From the IMG/VR virus record IMGVR_UViG_2660238346_000020: DNA of 13,692 bases; one strand, written 5' to 3'. The number at the start of each line of letters is the position of its first letter. Position 1 is the first letter of the stretch. Positions 1 to 13,692 of the stretch are shown here, one piece after another. Origin of the DNA: a virus (lineage: Duplodnaviria > Heunggongvirae > Uroviricota > Caudoviricetes). The notes beneath the pieces were generated by a model, which saw nothing but the letters and a program-made list of their open reading frames with translations, was not told where the DNA came from and did not search any database. Made by a program: the position numbers and the translations under genes.

Positions 1-277
1 AGAACGCCTTATCCGGCCTACGGGAACAGTGCTTTTTGTGGGCCTGATAAGATGCGTTAAGCGTCGCATCAGGCATTATGGCGCAGTTGCCGGATGCGGC
101 GAGAACGCCTTATCCGGCCTACGGGAACAGTGCTTTTTGTGGGCCTGATAAGATGCGTTAAGCGTCGCATCAGGCATTATGGCGCAGTTGCCGGATGCGG
201 CATGAACGCCTTATCCGGCCTACGGGAACAGTGCTTTTTGTGGGCCTGATAAGACGCGTTAAGCGTCGCATCAGGCA
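1..277. repeat. Tandem REP/BIME-type repeats: about 2.7 copies of a ~101-bp unit (copies begin at 1, 102, 203), each containing two palindromic REP-like elements
   Basis: Direct: near-identical 101-bp units repeat at period 101, with point differences (gatgcg vs gacgcg; gagaacg vs catgaacg). Each unit holds the imperfect palindromes gcctgataagatgcgttaagcgtcgcatcaggc and gccggatgcggcg...cgccttatccggc, typical of E. coli REP sequences. The first copy may be cut by the window edge. Confidence 0.85.
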
Positions 278-283
278 ACAAAC

Positions 284-589
284 TCACGGGTGAGCCACAA
301 ACCGGGAAAGCCGCTGGCGCAGCAGGCGGTTTTCCTGCTTCAGGTGCGCAATATCATCCATTAACGTCAGCGCCACCGCGATCCCCGGCCAGTCCAGAGC
401 CAGTTCATGACGCAGGCGTACCGCGCGTTGCACCACAATGGCGGCATGGTCGTCAAATACCCAGGTTGTCTCCTGGATCTCACTCGGTTCAACCACCCCC
501 AAACCGACAATTTCATTCAACTCCTCTTCAGAGATGCCGGTATGCAGGCAAAATTCGGTAATAGTAAAAGTCACCGTAACATTAGCCAT
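284..589 (-). CDS. cbpM: CbpM, chaperone modulator of CbpA (101 aa)
   Basis: Translation [33 protein letters not shown]... matches CbpM as I recall it. ATG at 587-589 chosen over the upstream TTG of the listed ORF. Its ATG overlaps the cbpA stop (TAATG), the conserved cbpA-cbpM arrangement. Confidence 0.88.
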
Positions 590-1509
590 TATGCTTTCCC
601 CCAATCTTTACGTGGATCAAAAGACGACTGGGCGTCTGCCAGTTGCTGCCACAGCGCGGCAGTGTTTTCATCCGGTTTCGGCGGCATCACGATTTTCAGT
701 ACCGCATACAGATCGCCGGTCTGTTTTTTGCTCACCAGACCTTTGCCTTTAACGCGCAATCGTTGCCCGGCCTGGCTGCCAGGCGGGATAGTCAGCAAAA
801 TGCTTTCTTTCAGTGTTGGAACGGTGACTTTAGTACCCAGCGCCGCTTCCCACGGGCTAACCGGCACCACTATTTCCAGATCCTGGCCGACAATATCAAA
901 CAGCGGATGTGGCGCAATGTGAATCACCAGCCACAGGTCGCCATTTGGACCGCCGTTTTCGCCCGGCGTCCCCTGGCCTTTCAGGCGGATGCGTTGACCA
1001 TTGCCGACGCCCGCCGGGATCTTCACATTCAGCGTTTTCGGGATTTCCTGTTCGATCATGCCAAAGGCGTTATAAACCGGCAGGTTATAGCTGATGGTAC
1101 GCTTATGCTCAGTAAGCGTTTCTTCGAGGAATACCGCCACTTCGATTTCAATATCGTGGCCGCGTGTGGCGGGGCGTTGACGGCTCTGGCGGGCATGCTG
1201 ACCGAAAATTGACGAGAAGATATCGTCAAAATCTTCGGCGTTAAAACTCTGACCGTCGCCATGATGGAACTGACGGTTAAATTGCGGATCGTTGCGATGT
1301 TGCCACATCTGATCATACTCAGCGCGACGTTGTTCATCACTTAACACTTCCCAGGCTTCAGCGACCTCTTTGAAGCGGGCTTCGGCATCAGGTTCTTTGC
1401 TGACATCAGGATGGTATTTGCGGGCCAGTCGACGATAGGCGGTCTTGATTGTCTTGAGATCGTCCGTCGGTTTCACGCCCATGATGGCGTAATAATCCTT
1501 TAATTCCAT
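589..1509 (-). CDS. cbpA: Curved DNA-binding protein CbpA, DnaJ-family co-chaperone (306 aa)
   Basis: N-terminal J domain (DYYAIMGV...[32 protein letters not shown] with HPD motif) followed by DnaJ-like C-terminal domains; full-length ORF. Confidence 0.95.
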
Positions 1510-2043
1510 AGCGTTATCTCGCGTAAATCAACACAAATTGAAGGAACCCCTGTAAGGTAACTCCTATAAGTGTAGGGTAATCCTCAAAATTTCATATGCC
1601 AACACAGAATATGTTATTGAAATCATCGCGGAGGGGAGGTCGCCTCAAGGTGGGAGGAACATATTTTATTTACCTCACTCCTGAACTTTTGGCTCATGCT
1701 TACAAGTTAAACAATAAGGAAAGGAATGCACAACTCGACTATTTAAATCGTTATGCAATTTAATGATAAAGACATGTGCTAAAAACCATTTCTATTAGTC
1801 TCACATTCTTTTTTTATTGGTAATGGTAACGCCGCTGATTTTCTTTATAGCTACTGATGTAATCATTAGCGGCGTAAACGAGGCCGGGGCTAATCAGGCA
1901 TAGTTTGCGTCAAAACTTGCCTGTTTTTAAAGGGGAATATAGAAAAACAGGCGTTCAACGAGCCATTTTGCGAACCTGTTCCCGGAAAAATGACATATTT
2001 CTGTCACACTCTTTAATTATTGATAACAAAAGAGGTGTGAGGA
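1510..2043. promoter_or_regulatory. Divergent intergenic region that must carry the cbpA (leftward) and agp (rightward) promoters; AT-rich tract about 1690-1830
   Basis: Inference from divergent gene orientation and a 534-bp non-coding gap. No convincing -35/-10 pair identified by eye. agp has a good RBS (gaggtgtgagga before ATG 2044). Confidence 0.4.
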
Positions 2044-3285
2044 ATGAACAAAACGCTAATCGCCGCAACTGTAGCAGGGATAGTTTTACTCGCTTCAAAT
2101 GCTCAGGCACAAACCGTACCGGAAGGCTATCAGCTACAGCAAGTGCTCATGATGAGCCGCCATAACTTACGTGCGCCGCTGGCGAACAATGGCAGTGTGC
2201 TGGAGCAGTCGACGCCGAATAAATGGCCTGAATGGGACGTCCCCGGTGGGCAGCTCACCACTAAAGGGGGCGTGCTCGAAGTGTATATGGGCCATTATAT
2301 GCGTGAATGGCTGGCAGAACAGGGGATGGTGAAATCAGGGGAATGCCCGCCACCGGACACCGTTTATGCCTATGCCAATAGTCTGCAACGCACCGTCGCG
2401 ACCGCGCAGTTCTTTATTACTGGCGCATTCCCTGGGTGTGATATTCCTGTTCATCACCAGGAAAAAATGGGCACTATGGACCCCACCTTTAACCCAGTGA
2501 TCACCGATGATTCCGCCGCATTCAGTGAACAGGCGGTGGCGGCAATGGAGAAAGAGCTCAGCAAACTCCAGCTTACCGACAGCTACAAGCTACTGGAACA
2601 AATCGTTAACTATAAAGATTCTCCTGCGTGTAAAGAGAAGCAACAATGTTCGCTTGTAGATGGCAAAAATACCTTTAGCGCGAAGTATCAACAAGAACCG
2701 GGCGTTTCCGGGCCGCTGAAAGTCGGCAACTCGCTGGTAGATGCGTTTACTTTGCAATACTACGAAGGTTTTCCGATGGATCAGGTGGCCTGGGGAGAAA
2801 TCAAATCTGACCAGCAGTGGAAGGTGTTGTCGAAGCTGAAAAACGGTTACCAGGACAGCCTGTTTACCTCACCGGAAGTGGCGCGCAATGTTGCGAAACC
2901 GCTGGTCAGTTATATCGACAAAGCCCTGGTCACCGATCGCACCAGTGCACCGAAAATCACGGTATTAGTTGGGCACGACTCCAACATTGCCTCTCTGTTA
3001 ACGGCGCTGGATTTCAAACCGTATCAGTTGCATGACCAGAACGAACGCACGCCGATTGGCGGCAAAATCGTTTTCCAGCGTTGGCATGACAGCAAAGCCA
3101 ATCGCGACCTGATGAAAATTGAATATGTGTACCAGAGTGCGGAACAGTTACGTAATGCCGATGCGTTAACCCTGCAGGTACCTGCGCAGCGCGTGACGCT
3201 GGAATTAAGCGGTTGCCCGATAGATGCCAACGGTTTTTGCCCAATGGATAAGTTTGATAGCGTATTGAATGAAGCGGTGAAATAA
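2044..3285 (+). CDS. agp: Periplasmic glucose-1-phosphatase, histidine acid phosphatase family (413 aa)
   Basis: N-terminal signal peptide ([22 protein letters not shown]) and histidine acid phosphatase active-site motif RHNLRAP; full-length match to Agp as recalled. Confidence 0.95.
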
Positions 3286-3292
3286 CAGAAAA

Positions 3293-3315
3293 CTCCCCCG
3301 CGTGAAGCGGGGGAG
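3293..3315 (-). terminator. Stem-loop between convergent agp and yccJ; intrinsic terminator mainly for the minus-strand yccJ-wrbA transcript
   Basis: Direct: ctcccccgc (3293-3301), loop gtgaa, gcgggggag (3307-3315), a 9-bp GC-rich stem. On the minus strand the stem is followed by TTTTCTGTT; on the plus strand the trailing tract is less U-rich. Confidence 0.6.
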
Positions 3316-3322
3316 TCGCTGG

Positions 3323-3550
3323 TTAAACGTTTTTACGTTCGATGGTCTGTTCGCCCCAAAAAAGCGAATCTTTATCGGTCTTAGCAAAGGCTTTGACTAA
3401 CACTTCATCGCTACCTTCTTCCCAAATCTTTTCCGCCATTTTTTCGTCGTACCCGGCGACTTCGAAAATGGCCTCGGCTATTTCCGGCGACGTATTGCGC
3501 AGAGATGCCCATTCACCGACGTGATGAGCTTTCGCTTCTTGAGTTGGCAT
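3323..3550 (-). CDS. yccJ: YccJ, small conserved protein of unknown function (75 aa)
   Basis: Full-length [40 protein letters not shown]... with AGGAGG RBS, directly downstream of wrbA as in E. coli. Confidence 0.88.
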
Positions 3551-3570
3551 GCGTATCCTCCTGTTGAAGA

Positions 3571-4149
3571 TTAGCCGTTAAGTTTAACTGCCAGACCTGC
3601 GACATATTCCCCTTGATAACGAGCAATAGACAGTTCTTCCTGGCTGGGCTGGCGTGAACCGTCACCGCCTGCGATGGTGGTTGCGCCGTACGGCGTACCG
3701 CCGCGAACCTGTGAAACGTCAAATAATTCCTGCGCTGCGTAGCCAATGGGGACAATCACCATGCCGTGATGCGCAAGGGTCGTCCAGGTGGATGTGATGG
3801 TTTGTTCCTGACCGCCGCCAGTACCGGTGGAACTAAAGACGCTCGCCAGTTTTCCGTATAGTGCGCCGGAAGCCCACAGGCCGCCCGTCTGGTCGAGGAA
3901 GGTACGCATTTGACCGGACATGTTACCAAAGCGGGTAGGTGTACCAAAAATAATGGCGTCGTAATCGGCCAGTTCTTGCGGGGTTGCAACCGGTGCAGTT
4001 TGCGTTTTACCGCCTGCTTTTTCAAATAATTGCGGCGGCATGGTTTCCGGTACACGCTTAACGACAACTTCTGCGCCATCCACTTTGCTTGCACCCTCAG
4101 CAACTGCGCGTGCCATCGTTTCAACATGTCTAAGGATATGCTTTATCAT
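3571..4149 (-). CDS. wrbA: WrbA NAD(P)H:quinone oxidoreductase (flavodoxin-like) with a prophage-derived replacement N-terminus (192 aa)
   Basis: From [37 protein letters not shown]... to the C-terminus it reads as WrbA. The first residues MIKHILRHV replace the canonical MAKVLVLYYSMYGHI recalled for K-12, which contains the flavodoxin FMN phosphate-binding loop. The ORF is intact but the product is probably non-functional or altered. Confidence 0.8.
4112..4131. other. Approximate prophage/host junction (att core) inside the 5' end of wrbA
   Basis: Inference: the sequence leftward of about 4125 matches the recalled K-12 wrbA 5' coding sequence (ttgaaacgatggcacgcgcagttgctgagggtgc on the minus strand); rightward of about 4130 it diverges and runs straight into the integrase 3' end. 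Exact core limits need alignment to an uninterrupted wrbA. Confidence 0.5.
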
Positions 4150-5456
4150 TTTGAAAAATATAATTTTATTTCATCCTCCTGGTCACTTTGGGGCACGTCT
4201 GGGGCACGGGCATTAAGGACATTATTCAGCATAGCAACCTGAGTCACGCTGCACTCAGGCATCCATGCACCATAAACATTGTAGACCATGCTGGCGCTGG
4301 AGTGCCCCATCTGTGATGCAATAAATGTCGGGTTTGCTCCGGCAGATAAAGCCCAGCACGCATAAGTATGGCGTGACTGATATGCTTTCCGGGCTCTTAT
4401 ACCCGCTCTTTTCATTGCTGAGTCCCATGTTGCCCCGATGGAGCTTACCGCATAGTTAATACCCGCCTTGTGATTCTTGCGAACGATTTGCGGACAGAAA
4501 ACAAAAGTGCACTCGTGCAAAATTGTTCTTCCGTACTCGCGTAATTTAACGGTGATCTGATGCTGCCTGCCAAGACGAGTAAGCATCGCCTGGTTTTTAA
4601 GTGCTTCAATGGCTGGTGCCAGAAGATGTATAACCCGGTCGGTGCCAGCATCAGTCTTTGGTAGCGTAAAATCACCTATTTTTGTAAAATTTCTTCGCAC
4701 TGTTATCGTGCCAACTTTCAGGTCGATATCCTCCCATGCAAGTGCGGCAATTTCACCATGTCGCATCCCCGTAAAAACAGCCACTGTCCAGAGGTTTTTG
4801 GTCTGTTGATGATGACAGGCATCAATGAGGCGACCAAACTCCTCTCTGGTCAGTGGATCTGGCACAGGTTTTGATTTCCTCAGTGGTGTTATTGAATTAA
4901 ACGGGTTTTTCTCCAGATACCCGTTTTCAGCGGCAAAGCTGAACATCCCGGCAGTTGTTGTCATGTAATAGTTTACCGTGGGGACTGTTCTTCCTTTGTT
5001 GGTGGAAGTGTTTTTCCTGCTTTCCTTTTCCCCAGTCAGTAAATCTTTCCTGATGAACAGCAAATCCTCTTTTGTAATCGAGGATGCCAGTCTACCCACG
5101 CCAAGCCTCGGTAGCATATTTTTCATCACTGATTGATAACGATTTAAGGCGTTACTACTGATTTCCATTGCTTTCAGAGTAAGCCATTTCTGTGCCAGTT
5201 CACCGACGGTGATATCTTTTTTTACCAGGCCAAATAGCTTCAGGTTAGGTGAGTCAGGGAATCGCTCGGCATAATCAAACGTTCCTGTTCTGATTGCAAA
5301 GCAGACCGAAGCCCTTAACTCACCAGCGATCTTTCTGTTTTTCGGTGTATCGGGCACGCGAAGATTTTCGCGCACTCGTTTACCCCTGTACTTAAACGTT
5401 ATTCGGAGTTTTCCTCCGTGATTTTCAACGCCGGCTGGATAGGCTGAATTCGCCAT
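4146..5456 (-). CDS. int: Phage integrase, tyrosine site-specific recombinase (436 aa from the ATG at 5456)
   Basis: C-terminal catalytic region with the conserved recombinase residues ([11 protein letters not shown]; SRHTYACW...[13 protein letters not shown]). ATG at 5454-5456 has a strong AGGAGG RBS 4 nt upstream; the listed ORF extends 8 codons further to a GTG. The stop TGA overlaps the wrbA ATG. Confidence 0.9.
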
Positions 5457-5508
5457 TGTTCCTCCTGCGTCCAAGAGCACGCTCAGGTTATACTCTTATG
5501 GACAAGAA

Positions 5509-7897: not shown

Positions 7898-9033
7898 GAT
7901 TTATCACCTCCGAAATTTTCAAGCCTGTTGGCAATCATGATGGCGATATCAGGGATTGCTGGCGCTGTGGCTATACATGCGGGGTTGGCGCACAAACCAT
8001 AGACGGCGGCAATCACGAGCTGTCTTTTCCAGTCGAGAGTTACTGGCTCAGAATTGGCGTCATCGCCGGACGTATCACTGCCTGGCTCGTTCTGAACAAC
8101 GGTTTCGCCCTCCTGAGCGGCATCAACAGAGTTTTCCTGAATGATCTTCTCCTCAGTTTGTGCTGAGTCTTCTCCATCAGCGGCGTCATTTTCTCCAAAA
8201 GTTTCTGTGTAAGTGCTATCGCCCATTACCGCACTACAGTCAGGGCAGTTACCCCCGCCAGTCTGACCACAGACGCGGCAGTTTTTTTCCAGCTCCGGTT
8301 GCGCTACTGGCCCTGGCTGTTGCTCTTCTGGCCCGTTTTGTTGCGTATCCGGGCTGTTTTGTCCCGCTTCTGGGGCAATTTGTTCCACTTTGGACTGATT
8401 CTGGTCCTCAGTGTCGCGAGTCTGGATCCCCTTCACCCACTTCGGATCAGCAGGGTTACTGATGCCTTCAACGAATTCTCCACGCGAGGCAGCCAGTAAT
8501 TTGTCGGCATCGACTGGATTTTTTGGGGGGATGTTTTCCCTGGCTTTATTGAGTTCCTCCCTCAGTTCCTGGTATTTCGTTTCTACAGATGAGACATTTT
8601 CCAGTGATTGCGTGTCCTCATTATGTTTAACTGGAATTTCTTCCACTGATTCAGGCGCTGCCTGTTCATTAGCCATTGTGTCCGATGCTTGTTGCTTTTC
8701 TTCATCGCCATGTTTTCCTTCTGCTGTTCCGCGCTGCGGCATCGGTGCTGATGAGCGACCGCAGGCAATTTCCACGATTTCCGGATCCGGGTTAGCGTGA
8801 TCGGTTTCGGTCAACACTTTGTTGAGATATTCAGTCACGCGTGCCGGGATGGCCTCAATGCCGATTGGTGCTTCTTTCACGGAAGCCACCACAATGGCGC
8901 GGGAATAATCCAGCCCACCGGGCATGGCGATAAATTTGTCGCGAAAAACAGAAAAGGGCGGCTTATTCTCTGACACGATTTCTTCAACGCGTTTTGCGTG
9001 TGCTGGGTGCAGGTTATAAATATCCACATCCAT
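7894..9033 (-). CDS. Hypothetical phage accessory protein, 379 aa: N-terminal domain, long acidic/Gln/Pro-rich low-complexity region, CxxC-x7-CxxC zinc-ribbon-like motif, hydrophobic C-terminal segment
   Basis: Long ORF whose stop overlaps the gam ATG (ATGA), implying co-transcription and coupling. Motif [15 protein letters not shown] encoded at about 8230-8290. No recognisable family. The frame stays open a further 50 codons upstream (to 9183) with no start codon. Confidence 0.55.
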
Positions 9034-9249
9034 TGAACGGGCCAGAACGCCGGTGGCTACATCTCGTGCGAGTGATGTCTTATCATGTTTGAATCCTTCA
9101 CCACGATCGGTAATATTTCCGCCGCCAGCGTTAGCACCGGAAGGCGTACGGGTAATGCCTGAAACATAATTTCCGTAAAGCAGTCAGGACACTTACTTGC
9201 TCTTTTATGAACACTCTTTTATGAAAATTGAAACGGAGAATACTGCCAG

Positions 9250-10650
9250 ATGAGTCATCAGTGTTCACTTTCTGAACTGAATGAAAACCTGGTGCCTTTC
9301 ACTGCCAGGCAGATTAAGTCCTCATTAATCTGGTGTGCAGAGGATGTCAGAAATCCAGACGAGCTGCAAAATGCCTGCAGTTATATTATCGATCCTGGCA
9401 GTACAGCTTCTGCCAAAGTGTTCCATGCAGAGCGCTATGGTGGCAGTGGTATTCAGCGTAATGGAGGTGGTGCACGTTGTGGGTTTGATGGTAACTACCA
9501 GGTTAAAGGAATAGGAAGTAATCCGTTGGTTGGCGAAGGTACTGACGAACGTCATTCTAATGGTGCACTCGGCGCTGTTCATGCAATATATGAGGCTTTG
9601 TGGGGAGAAGTACTGGCTCAAATATTACCTTATAGTGCTGTGCGGGTTCGGGCGGTTTTACTTACAGATCTCTATACTGAAAAGGCATTTGAGCGCTCCG
9701 GTAGGAAATCACGAAGAGCCCTGTTGGTACGTGAGCCTGTTGTTCGCCCGGCGCATTTTGAACGGGCACCTTACTTCCAAGTAAAACCGGAGTATTCCAG
9801 TCAGTTAATTCACGATGCCTGTCGGGTTAGATCTGTGATCCACAAGCTGCCAGGATATCTACCTGTACCACCGGAAGAAATTGATGCTGAAGCACGAACT
9901 GATCCCCGGATTTATTGCATTGAGGGGTTATGTGAACTGGCACGTCGTGAGGCCTGGCAAATGGCATTTTGTCGAACACGTTTCCTGAGATTGACAACTT
10001 CTCCTTCTAATATTGCAATGGATGGCAGATTAATGGATTTTAACGGACTCAGTTGTCTGTTTCCGGGAGATTCCCCAGCTGATTTTGGGTATAAACTAAG
10101 ATTAGCTGAACTGGCAAAAGAACCGATGGTACTTATGCAAGGGCTGTCTGATCTCTGCTTGTATATCGGAAAATATATGTTTGACCCTGACTTCACTCTT
10201 GCAGCCCGTTTGAAGGTTGAGGAGATATTTCAGAAAACTTTTCATGAAGCATGTTATTACTGTTATCTAGAACTGTTGGGTATTCCTGGAGAATTTATAA
10301 CACAAAAAGAGATACCTGATATATTGAAAGAACTGGTTAACAGTTTTGTTGCATTACTCAATAAATACTGCGAGAAATCACATGCCCAAGATATTGTCAA
10401 TCAGGATGGTTCACCATTGCAAAAGTTGGTTGTGACGCTAATCCATCATAGGCATAATCAAAAGCAGGCACTGAATAGTAGCATCAAGAATGATGTTTAT
10501 TTCACCGTTGCACAACAGTGTTTTTCCCAGGCCATCCACTGGCTGACGCAAGGCAGTACCAGACGTCAGATAAATGCCTCATTACTCCTGAAAGAAATTG
10601 AACATCATACCATGAAAAGGCTGCAACCCAGGGAAGAGCTGAGGAAATAG
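9250..10650 (+). CDS. mchC: Microcin maturation protein, MchC/MceJ-like (466 aa); assignment by operon context
   Basis: Large ORF with SD (acggag) immediately upstream of the HlyC-family acyltransferase gene and the CvaA/CvaB-family exporter genes, the arrangement of siderophore-microcin (H47/M/E492) clusters. I cannot confirm homology from memory of the MchC sequence. Confidence 0.5.
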   Translation: MSHQCSLSELNENLVPFTARQIKSSLIWCAEDVRNPDELQNACSYIIDPGSTASAKVFHAERYGGSGIQRNGGGARCGFDGNYQVKGIGSNPLVGEGTDERHSNGALGAVHAIYEALWGEVLAQILPYSAVRVRAVLLTDLYTEKAFERSGRKSRRALLVREPVVRPAHFERAPYFQVKPEYSSQLIHDACRVRSVIHKLPGYLPVPPEEIDAEARTDPRIYCIEGLCELARREAWQMAFCRTRFLRLTTSPSNIAMDGRLMDFNGLSCLFPGDSPADFGYKLRLAELAKEPMVLMQGLSDLCLYIGKYMFDPDFTLAARLKVEEIFQKTFHEACYYCYLELLGIPGEFITQKEIPDILKELVNSFVALLNKYCEKSHAQDIVNQDGSPLQKLVVTLIHHRHNQKQALNSSIKNDVYFTVAQQCFSQAIHWLTQGSTRRQINASLLLKEIEHHTMKRLQPREELRK

Positions 10651-10653
10651 AAT

Positions 10654-10800
10654 ATGTGCGAAAAAATTGCCATCCTGCTGGATAATCATGGCGATGATCC
10701 CCTTTTTTTACAAGAAGCAATTTCTGATATGAAAAATTTTATGCTTAAGTTTTCCAGAGATGCATTTGGATATCTTGAACCGATAAGAAACACAGTGTAA
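10654..10800 (+). CDS. Unlisted 48-aa ORF between mchC-like and mchD-like genes (MCEKIAILLDNHGDDPLFLQEAISDMKNFMLKFSRDAFGYLEPIRNTV)
   Basis: Direct: ATG 3 nt after the mchC stop with GAGGAAA 7 nt upstream; ends 25 nt before the mchD ATG. Below the length cutoff of the ORF track. No double-glycine leader and no Gly/Ser-rich core, so it does not look like a microcin precursor. Confidence 0.3.
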   Translation: MCEKIAILLDNHGDDPLFLQEAISDMKNFMLKFSRDAFGYLEPIRNTV

Positions 10801-10825
10801 TAAATATATAAGGGAAATAGTAATC

Positions 10826-11278
10826 ATGTCTTATATAAGGGAAACCATCAGAGGAAAAGATGAATGGACTGTTTATGAACAGATCGGTTTTGCGGTCAGT
10901 TGTATGCTCTACAATCGTAATTACAGTCTGTATCCGGTGTTAACCATTCAATACTGGACTGAATATGCGATACAGCATAATCAGATTAAATTCCTGTTTG
11001 ATTCACGAGGTTTTCCACTGGCGTATATTACTTGGGCATATCTTGAGGCTGATACAGAAGCGCGCCTGCTCAGGGATCCAGAATTCAGGTTGCATCCGTC
11101 TGAATGGAATGAAGATGGAAGGATCTGGATTCTGGATTTCTGTTGTAAACCAGGCTTTGGTCGAAAAGTTATTGACTATCTCATACAGCTTCAGCCATGG
11201 GGAGAAGGAGAAGTACGATGGTTAAGCAGGCGAAAGAAAATTGTGACATACATCCCTGAGCGGCTGCATAAAACGTAG
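10826..11278 (+). CDS. mchD: HlyC/toxin-activating acyltransferase family protein, MchD/MceI-like microcin maturation factor (150 aa)
   Basis: Alignable by eye to HlyC: AIQHNQIKFLFDSRGFPLAYITWAYLEADTE vs HlyC [30 protein letters not shown], and WNEDGRIWILDFCCKPGFG vs W.SGDRKWFIDWIAPFG. No RTX toxin gene nearby, consistent with the microcin-type paralogue. Confidence 0.7.
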   Translation: MSYIRETIRGKDEWTVYEQIGFAVSCMLYNRNYSLYPVLTIQYWTEYAIQHNQIKFLFDSRGFPLAYITWAYLEADTEARLLRDPEFRLHPSEWNEDGRIWILDFCCKPGFGRKVIDYLIQLQPWGEGEVRWLSRRKKIVTYIPERLHKT

Positions 11279-11430
11279 TACCTCTGAAGATACAGAGATA
11301 ATTGTAAATTACGGGGTAAATGCATCGCTGATACTATTTTGACAGGACTCTGTATTTTCTGGCTTTGATTATAGCATTTCGGTTAACCAGTGAAGGTATT
11401 ACAGGAAAAGTGTGAGTAAGAGGAGCTATT

Positions 11431-12705
11431 TTGTTTCTTCAGGATGCTTTAGAAAACAGAAAAATGAAGTGGCAGGGACGGGCAATATTACTTCCCGGAA
11501 TACCACTATGGTTAATCATGCTGGGAAGCATAGTGTTTATTACGGCATTTCTGATGTTCATTATTGTTGGTACCTATAGCCGCCGTGTTAATGTCAGTGG
11601 TGAGGTCACAACCTGGCCAAGAGCTGTCAATATATATTCAGGTGTACAGGGATTTGTTGTCAGGCAGTTTGTTCATGAAGGACAGTTGATAAAAAAAGGG
11701 GATCCTGTTTATCTGATTGACATCAGTAAAAGTACACGTAGTGGTATTGTCACTGATAATCATCGTCGGGATATAGAAAACCAGCTGGTTCGTGTGGACA
11801 ACATTATTTCCCGTCTGGAAGAAAGTAAAAAAATAACGCTAGATACCCTGGAAAAACAACGCCTGCAATACACAGATGCGTTTCGTTGCTCATCAGATAT
11901 TATACAGCGTGCAGAGGAAGGGATAAAAATAATGAAAAACAATATGGAGAATTACAGAAACTATCAGACAAAAGGGCTGATTAATAAAGATCAGTTAACT
12001 AACCAGGTGGCATTATATTATCAGCAACAAAACAATCTTCTTAGCCTGAGCGGACAGAACGAACAGAATGCCCTGCAGATAACCACTCTGGAGAGTCAGA
12101 TTCAAACTCAGGCAGCAGATTTTGATAACCGTATCTACCAGATGGAACTGCAACGGTACGAGTTACAGAAAGAACTGGTTAACACTGATGTGGAGGGCGA
12201 AATCATTATCCGGGCGTTGACTGACGGGAAAGTTGACTCCCTGAGTGTCACTGTCGGGCAAATGGTCAATACCGGAGACAGCCTTCTGCAGGTTATTCCT
12301 GAGAACATTGAAAATTATTATCTTATTCTCTGGGTCCCGAATGATGCTGTTCCTTATATTTCGGCTGGTGACAAAGTGAATATTCGTTATGAAGCCTTTC
12401 CGGCAGAAAAATTTGGGCAGTTCTCTGCTACGGTTAAAACTATATCCAGGACTCCTGCGTCAACACAGGAAATGTTGACCTATAAGGGAGCACCACAGAA
12501 TACGCCGGGCGCCTCTGTTCCCTGGTATAAAGTCATTGCGATGCCTGAAAAGCAGATTATCAGATATGGCGAAAAATACCTCCCTCTGGAAAATGGAATG
12601 AAAGCCGAAAGTACACTATTTCTGGAAAAAAGGCGTATTTACCAGTGGATGCTTTCTCCTTTCTATGACATGAAACACAGTGCAACAGGACCGCTCAATG
12701 ACTAA
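11431..12705 (+). CDS. mchE: CvaA/MchE-family membrane fusion protein (HlyD family) of the microcin type I secretion system (424 aa from the TTG start)
   Basis: Near-identical to CvaA as recalled (M F . [56 protein letters not shown]...). N-terminal TM helix then coiled-coil periplasmic domain. AGGAG RBS 6 nt before the TTG. The 3' end overlaps the mchF ATG by 8 nt. Confidence 0.9.
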
Positions 12706-13471
12706 CGGGAATTTCAGACAAATTATAAATCAGCTTGATATGCGCTGGCGACGTCGTGTTCCGGTTATTCATCAGACGGAGACCGCTGAATGTGGACTGG
12801 CCTGCCTGGCAATGATATGCGGTCATTTTGGTAAGAATATTGACCTGATATCTCTTCGCCGGAAGTTTAATCTCTCGGCCCGTGGAGCAAACCTTGCAGG
12901 AATCAATGGAATAGCGGAGCAGCTGGGGATGGTCACCCGGGCTCTTTCACTGGAGCTGAATGAGCTTGGTGCCCTCAAAATGCCGTGTATTCTCCACTGG
13001 GATTTCAGTCACTTCGTCGTGCTGGTCAGCGTAAAGCGTAACCGTTATGTACTGCATGATCCGGCCAGAGGCAGAAGATATCTCGGTCGGGAGGAAATGA
13101 GCCGGTATTTTACGGGCATTGCACTGGAGGTCTGGCCCGGAAGTGAATTCCAGGCGGAAACCCAGCAGACCCGCATAAGTCTCCGTTCACTGATTAACAG
13201 TATTTACGGTATTAAAAGAACACTGGCGAAAATTTTCTGTCTGTCAGTTGTAATTGAAGCAATCAATCTGGTAATGCCGGTGGGGACTCAGCTGGTTATG
13301 GATCATGCGATTCCGGCGGGGGACAGAGGGCTGCTGACGCTTATTTCTGCTGGCCTTATGTTCTTTATATTGCTCAAGGCCGCGGTGAGTATGCTGCGTG
13401 CATGGTCCTCACTAGTTATGAGCACGCTCATCAATGTACAGTGGCAGTCGGTGATGCTGCCAACTTACTGA
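12698..13471 (+). pseudogene. mchF: CvaB/MchF-family bacteriocin ABC transporter, 5' fragment only: C39 peptidase domain and first TM region (about 251 native codons), truncated by IS1
   Basis: [50 protein letters not shown]... (C39 catalytic Cys in ECGLAC and His in HFVVL) matches CvaB through ...LINVQWQS. From 13450 the frame reads IS1 terminal sequence (VMLPTY*). Transmembrane and ATPase domains are absent from the window. Confidence 0.88.
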
Positions 13472-13692
13472 TTTAGTGTATGATGGTGTTTTTGAGGTGC
13501 TCCAGTGGCTTCTGTTTCTATCAGCTGTCCCTCCTGTTCAGCTACTGACGGGGTGGTGCGTAACGGCAAAAGCACCGCCGGACATCAGCGCTATCTCTGC
13601 TCTCACTGCCGTAAAACATGGCAACTGCAGTTCAATTACACCGCTTCTCAACCTGGTACGCACCAGAAAAGCATTGATATGGCCATGAATGG
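13450..13692 (+). mobile_element. IS1 insertion sequence, left end with terminal inverted repeat; continues beyond the window
   Basis: Direct: GGTGATGCTGCCAACTTACTGATTTAGTGTATGATGGTGTTTTTGAGGTGCTCCAGTGGCTTCTGTTTCTATCAGCTG is the canonical IS1 terminus and insA upstream region. Confidence 0.92.
13505..13692 (+). CDS. insA: IS1 InsA (partial, runs off window end); GTG start
   Basis: Translation [63 protein letters not shown] matches InsA, with two substitutions against the variant I recall. Not in the ORF track because no stop lies within the window; the listed ORF 13476..13688 is in a different frame. Confidence 0.88.

Follow-up and report, generated by a model that had tools for sequence, protein, structure and literature searches.

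At the right-hand end of the DNA analysed here, a 13,692-nt stretch that we call the window, lies what is very probably an export-dead pseudogene of mchF, the exporter gene of microcin H47/M, with the left end of an IS1 element placed after codon 251. During export MchF removes the leader, with MchE and TolC as required partners (PMC7472721). Transposition of IS1 would have put the left end of the element behind mchF codon 251, the reading frame runs six codons into IS1 and then stops, and any product would be a membrane-anchored C39 peptidase of 257 aa that lacks the substrate channel (TM3-6) and the ATPase. Because the channel and the ATPase are missing, no export via MchE-MchF-TolC is expected here and the route would be inoperable from this locus, as judged from the domain architecture of PCAT-type ABC exporters. 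A reading made earlier from the letters of the window (the sequence-only reading) had called the secretion system non-functional as encoded here, and with TM3-6 and the ATPase gone the same architecture argues for that view. Export could still be provided in trans if the genome has another exporter, such as cvaAB on a ColV plasmid.

Table 1. Coordinates of the features discussed, counted from the first letter of the window.
Feature	Position	Strand	Basis
Seam between prophage recE and the mchB-mchC intergenic region	9170..9182	.	Homology ends at 9176 (recE) and starts at 9178 (mch)
Premature TAG in mchC (GAG in FEX669)	10648..10650	+	Alignment to L001
mchE, HlyD-family membrane-fusion partner of MchF, intact, 424 aa	11431..12705	+	HlyD-family Pfam matches; FEX669 collinearity
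mchF' pseudogene ORF, 257 aa	12698..13471	+	Translation; identity to intact mchF
C39 double-glycine leader peptidase domain, complete (aa 21-149)	12758..13144	+	Pfam PF03412, E 1.4e-40
TM1 core (aa ~175-201) and TM2 core (aa ~210-236)	13220..13405	+	Kyte-Doolittle scan
IS1, first 243 nt; IRL 13450-13472; insA 5' part from GTG 13506 to window end	13450..13692	+	Identity, IRL pattern

The mchF remnant and its predicted product

The gene starts at 12698, reading ATGACTAAC..., and its 754 nt up to 13451 are 100% identical to the annotated full-length mchF of E. coli FEX669 and of two ST131 chromosomes. This answers the comparison with uninterrupted mchF that had been proposed as a check: identity is complete to 13451, and the intact protein has 698 aa. 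Translation of the 257-aa ORF gave native codons 1-251 of 698 (..INVQWQS), followed by the IS1-encoded residues VMLPTY (13451-13468) and a TGA at 13469-13471. The IS1 left end had been placed at 13450, straight after ..INVQWQS, and both the match to the left inverted repeat described below and this translation confirmed the coordinates. As a gene remnant, the region is assigned to mchF by its identity and by its synteny, downstream of mchC, mchD and mchE.

The peptidase part of the product is well preserved. Direct reading located the three catalytic codons of the C39 domain, C32 (tgt, 12791-12793), H105 (cac, 13010-13012) and D121 (gat, 13058-13060), and mchF' aligned to the solved C39 domain LahT150 (6mpz), to residues 11-238 of ComA and to residues 9-231 of PCAT1, the best PDB match being LahT150 (6mpz, E 1.1e-21). 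The retention of a C39 domain with its catalytic Cys and His, noticed from the letters, is borne out by the PF03412 match and by these codons. The transporter part is mostly gone. In the 257-aa product, the ABC_membrane match was confined to profile positions 4-78 of 274, its score of 23.8 bits fell short of the 28-bit cut-off, and Pfam gave no match to ABC_tran; in intact MchF, ABC_membrane is found at 179-444 (profile positions 4-272) and ABC_tran at 510-658. About 73% of the membrane domain and the whole ATPase are therefore missing from the mchF' product, in agreement with the claim that transporter core and ATPase had been lost. The hydrophobic cores of TM1 and TM2 are the sole remains of the six-helix membrane domain, and TM3-6 are absent; the sequence-only reading had correctly described a truncated membrane part, but counted about 1.5 helices where hydropathy gives two full cores. 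With respect to the PCAT architecture of the CvaB/MchF type, the product thus has the N-terminal C39 domain with Cys, His and Asp and lacks the six-helix TM domain and the C-terminal ABC_tran.

Retention of the truncated ORF as a working, membrane-anchored, stand-alone double-glycine leader peptidase appears very unlikely. The C39 domain and its Cys, His and Asp are intact, yet the nonsense, frameshift and IS lesions in the neighbouring genes mark a locus that selection has ceased to maintain. Isolated C39 domains, LahT150 among them, cut double-glycine leaders on their own in vitro, whereas PCAT1 shows stronger proteolysis when its peptidase is associated with the complete membrane domain, which is missing here (PMC6363468). 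The overlap between mchE and mchF would permit translational coupling, but the window as assembled contains no mchB, the seam in this assembly being unreliable. A promoter and terminator scan stayed at background level, with 10 promoter sites in 9000-13692 against 9.5 expected, and carries no information on expression either way. The earlier suggestion that a stand-alone C39 fragment could still cleave leaders is accordingly plausible as biochemistry (PMC6363468) and found no support at this locus. We give slightly less credence still to the more specific proposal that the remnant is expressed through coupling to mchE and acts as a membrane-tethered peptidase, cleaving its own or plasmid-encoded double-glycine precursors without exporting them; if true, this would mean altered microcin maturation, self-intoxication or immunity in the lineage. 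The reading that we retain is that of an export-dead pseudogene.

The mchF/IS1 junction and its recurrence

The element lies in the same orientation as mchF. The pattern GGTRATGNNNCCAACTTACTGAT occurs once in the window, with 0 mismatches, on the + strand at 13450-13472, whereas chance would give 0.01 matches, and the terminal inverted repeat GGTGATGCTGCCAACTTACTGAT was exact from 13450, as in an IS1-family end. Compared with the first 243 nt of the complete 768-bp IS1 of plasmid NZ_CP087565.1, the segment 13450-13692 showed 3 differences (98.8% identity); these 243 nt are all that is seen of the element in the window, which ends at 13692. An insA frame follows the left end, and the corresponding gene calls of sister contigs match PF03811 (Zn_ribbon_InsA). 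Native mchF continues ...CAGTCGGGTCTGTTT, and because the GG at 13450-13451 is common to IS1 and native mchF, the mchF/IS1 breakpoint is ambiguous by 2 nt.

The exact 257-aa product, tail from IS1 included, has index entries in 28 collection blocks. At least 24 contigs carry it; they come from NCBI, ENA and Logan, and its cluster entry (P0131) is present in all three sources. Ten retrieved contigs could be aligned straight across the junction and have 0-11 differences outside it; the invariance of mchF' among the retrieved contigs is an ascertainment effect, the contigs having been fetched by exact protein identity. The junction carriers are draft contigs of less than 20 kb from differing assemblers, and all stop inside IS1; among their sources are the runs ERR738834, ERR13951951, SRR29134264 and SRR13318136 and the assembly GCA_001373195.1. 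At the nucleotide level, the exact 50-nt left junction had 1 match in IMG/VR, the near-identical twin IMGVR_UViG_2660238352_000015 (CDRO01000207.1, 13,719 bp), which likewise ends in IS1, and 0 matches in GTDB representatives and in JGI metagenomes. The junction was absent from the complete E. coli chromosomes and plasmids, searched with a 995-nt query and then with a 130-nt junction query; the sole near match among these genomes and plasmids was a different event, cvaB::IS1, to which we return below.

The host is E. coli, since the core genes at 1-4130 (cbpM/cbpA, agp, yccJ, wrbA) are 99.8% identical to many strains. A non-coli Escherichia host was rejected; the early identity value of ~95% had been diluted by prophage DNA. 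After wrbA comes the left arm of a lambdoid prophage (int, exo, bet, gam and a RecE-family gene); the contig is listed in IMG/VR as viral, and its left half carries these prophage genes. From 9178 onwards the window is collinear with the mch cluster, beginning 72 bp upstream of mchC, and the mchC-mchF block is collinear with FEX669 at 99.2% identity. The joint between the two parts (9170-9182) is an unreliable scaffold seam. At this place the twin public contig reads NNNNCGNNN, a run of Ns, the window has one orphan base and a SNP at 9182 relative to native recE and native mch, and another strain (L006) continues the native mch sequence 58 bp upstream of the seam. A search for the rest of recE from IMG genome 2660238352, which bears on whether mchC-mchF'-IS1 is inserted into the prophage, matched 35 viral contigs, none of them from that genome. 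Neither the microcin gene mchB nor the immunity gene mchI is present in the window as assembled, with its unreliable upstream seam, and their lack may reflect assembly rather than biology. The source contig should accordingly be used with caution, as a scaffold with an unreliable internal seam.

A chimeric origin of the mchF/IS1 junction was weighed in the light of this seam. The source contig comes from a short-read draft and has a repeat at its end, and its other internal joint is an assembly seam. Against this, the same junction recurs in assemblies made independently, by different pipelines and from different samples (NCBI drafts, MEGAHIT-style ENA contigs, Logan contigs), and mchF breaks off precisely where a perfect terminal repeat of IS1 begins, so that we consider an artefact extremely improbable. 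An E. coli lineage has inherited this junction as a fixed allele.

Sequence expected beyond IS1

That IS1 truncates mchF after codon 251 stands as first proposed; that it does so by simple insertion was not established, every carrier contig ending in IS1. The extension that the sequence-only reading had recommended, towards the other IS1 end, a target-site duplication and the mchF 3' part, was pursued by searches and yielded none of the three, all carriers ending inside the element. A simple insertion would consist of a complete 768-bp IS1, a target duplication of ~9 bp (predicted GTGGCAGTC) and then mchF codons 252-698, with the right junction reading ...GAGTCATTACC|GTGGCAGTC|GGGTCTGTTTAAC and the right end of IS1 joined to GTGGCAGTCGGGTCTGTTTAAC. 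Simple insertion is the commonest outcome of IS1 transposition, and an independent IS1 in the homologous cvaB, 33 bp downstream of the equivalent site, is flanked by a 9-bp duplication, AGACTACCG (NZ_CP087565.1). The predicted right junction, however, had 0 matches as a 142-nt synthetic query in 5,426 complete E. coli genomes, and a right-junction pattern (IS1 end, 6-16 nt, mchF continuation) had 0 matches in JGI metagenome contigs and 0 in GTDB representatives. With the protein evidence given next, these results leave simple insertion a serious candidate whose chance we put somewhat below even.

Among the full-length MchF alleles retrieved, only the FEX669 allele (P0146, on 276 contigs) and P0150 share the first 251 residues of the window. 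On these two alleles we built 17 predicted 3' products, with a start placed inside IS1, as partials cut at a contig edge or from four internal starts, and looked them up exactly in a collection of 15 billion proteins. None was found beside an IS1, whereas the 5' product is present on at least 24 contigs; the look-up has limited power, as a single differing residue in the 3' allele, or a different start picked by the gene caller, is enough to make it fail. Two of the 17 products do exist (P0147 and P0148), on unrelated contigs that carry no IS1: one is a frameshifted mchF and the other lies at a contig start. A further frameshifted mchF is P0130.

The alternative to simple insertion is an IS1-associated deletion or rearrangement, in which the rest of mchF, possibly along with mcmI and mcmA further on, would have been lost or moved and unrelated DNA would follow IS1, by an IS1 adjacent deletion or by recombination between IS1 copies. 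We rate this at slightly better than an even chance. The same negative searches for the right junction and the 3' products point to it, although the look-ups may have failed on a 3' allele differing by one residue. Other IS-linked erosion of the island is seen in sister contigs, and a median of 10 places per E. coli genome match the junction query, essentially IS1 copies that could serve as recombination partners; no contig crosses IS1, so the case has zero positive evidence. Our lean towards the 3' 64% of mchF being no longer adjacent to IS1, rather than still behind it, is a mild one.

P0006, a partial MchF of 451 aa that begins with residue 248 at the end of contig L013, was tried as a post-IS1 fragment and rejected: its contig starts 'TACAG...', just past the first base of codon 247, which is polymorphic (GTA/ATA). 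Breaks between residues 247 and 300 are seen in many MchF fragments of the database; their most likely cause is forking of the assembly graph where the sequence is polymorphic or has a paralogue (mchF/cvaB), rather than IS1.

Decay of the microcin island and comparison with known systems

The stop of mchE overlaps the start of mchF by 8 nt, with the same overlap in FEX669, where the mchE counterpart, upstream of mchF, is annotated 'HlyD family secretion protein'. The premature TAG shortens MchC from 516 to 466 aa and is present in all junction-bearing contigs that reach the position; MchC was called as 466 aa plus 48 aa in contigs L002-L006 and as 516 aa in the unrelated L016 and L017. Other lesions are found in some sister contigs: 12239delC splits mchE in L003, L005 and L007, and in L008 and L010 an IS3-family orfA abuts window position 10956, inside mchD. 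Contigs L003, L004 and L005 carry the same junction together with the full upstream island, including genes at the FEX669 positions of mchS3, mchI and mchB. Because these three keep the full island with the junction, the IS1 cut and the mchC nonsense codon are common to all of these sub-lineages and the other changes are sub-lineage specific. The microcin island is eroding, in the pattern of a locus that decays after losing its function.

The lesion is an ordinary IS1-truncated pseudogene in this eroding island, and the kind of event is already known, both the IS-mediated inactivation of bacteriocin exporters and the erosion of siderophore-microcin islands having been documented. Its scientific weight is small, and its use lies in annotation and typing. 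Since the remnant matches the first 36% of mchF at full identity, screens that use the gene as a marker could score strains carrying it as positive; in such strains export would be impossible from the locus, as far as domain architecture can tell, mchC is broken as well, and this assembly lacks the toxin gene.

Compared with intact mchF (FEX669, WP_021531193.1), the locus has the first 754 nt identical, the mchE partner with its 8-nt overlap, and the C39 domain; of the 698-aa MchF, everything after residue 251 is replaced here by six IS1-encoded residues. A truncated mchF is known from UPEC 536, which without a functional ABC/MFP pair probably cannot secrete, 5'-truncated siderophore-microcin islands from Nissle 1917, CFT073 and ABU83972, and an IS insertion from CA58 (PMC7472721). 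The present locus resembles these eroded islands in its piecemeal inactivation by truncation and IS elements and differs in breakpoint and element. Judged by titles and abstracts, the literature mentioning mchF, IS1 and 'truncated' contained no description of the codon-251 IS1 junction.

The closest parallel is the cvaB::IS1 insertion on p10_578_1 (NZ_CP087565.1), in the colicin V counterpart of MchF. It shares with our junction the IS1 orientation, an orthologous gene and the splitting of the C39 end from the transporter core. It is a separate and fully visible event, unique to p10_578_1 in PLSDB, with a 768-bp IS1, the 9-bp duplication already given and the 3' part of cvaB retained. The C39 domain of mchF', for its part, shares a homologous fold and the catalytic residues with LahT150 (6mpz), the ComA PEP and the PCAT1 peptidase domain, but isolated C39 proteins are engineered soluble constructs of ~150 aa, whereas mchF' is an accidental 257-aa fragment with two TM segments and a foreign tail.

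The recE/mch joint and lesions in the mch genes

Where the window joins the prophage recE gene to the mchB-mchC spacer, the near-identical public twin contig (CDRO01000207.1) shows NNNNCGNNN, and the joint itself carries an orphan base and a SNP at 9182. This joint is likely a scaffold seam; the adjacency of the prophage and the mch genes may then be only apparent, as may the absence of mchB and mchI.

Within mchC, the codon that reads TAG in the window is GAG in FEX669, an E. coli strain with an intact mchF, and MchC is shortened from 516 to 466 aa. The TAG is common to every contig that bears the mchF/IS1 junction and extends to this codon. Additional lesions in mchE and mchD occur on contigs with the identical junction: in L003, L005, and L007, a 1-nt deletion at window-equivalent position 12239 splits mchE into products of 270 and 147 aa, and in L008 and L010, an IS3-family orfA adjoins mchD at window-equivalent position 10956.

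Features and their coordinates
Feature	Sequence	Position	Remark
Tandem repeat	Window	1-277	101-bp unit, 2.7 copies, 98% match; upstream of cbpM
Lambdoid prophage integrase gene and wrbA	Window	3571-5480	
Prophage recE gene/mchB-mchC spacer joint	Window	9170-9182	
mchC	Window	9250-10650	Premature TAG at 10648-10650
Independent IS1 insertion in cvaB	NZ_CP087565.1 (L015)	4080-4865	

Partial MchF entries and the terminal IS1

Many protein-database entries labeled partial MchF start or stop between residues 247 and 300 (P0133, P0138, P0141, P0143, P0144, and P0006). These breaks look like a recurrent assembly break, probably located where mchF of the chromosome and cvaB of plasmids converge and diverge in sequence.

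In the final 60 nt of the IS1 part, the window and the twin contig differ at 13635, 13642, and 13671, and two of the three differences alter InsA residues (T to N and I to S). They probably reflect either noise at the end of the contig, where IS1 copies have been collapsed, or a variant IS1 copy.

Flanking genes and comparison with known arrangements

The integrase gene lies immediately beside wrbA and shares 4 nt with the 5' end of that gene; the family-profile match of the wrbA product begins only at profile position 13. The annotation of E. coli WG5::TT12A shows the same order of wrbA and integrase. WG5::TT12A carries yccE (about 1.26 kb) between cbpA and agp, whereas the window lacks it at 1668/1669, an arrangement matched at 99.8% identity by many E. 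coli genomes. The tandem array presumably resembles a REP/BIME-type intergenic repeat.

On plasmid NZ_CP087565.1, the IS1 in cvaB is flanked by a 9-bp target duplication, AGACTACCG, and the remaining 5' piece of cvaB has been trimmed to about 100 bp by IS26. This insertion lies 33 bp downstream of the site equivalent to the mchF junction.
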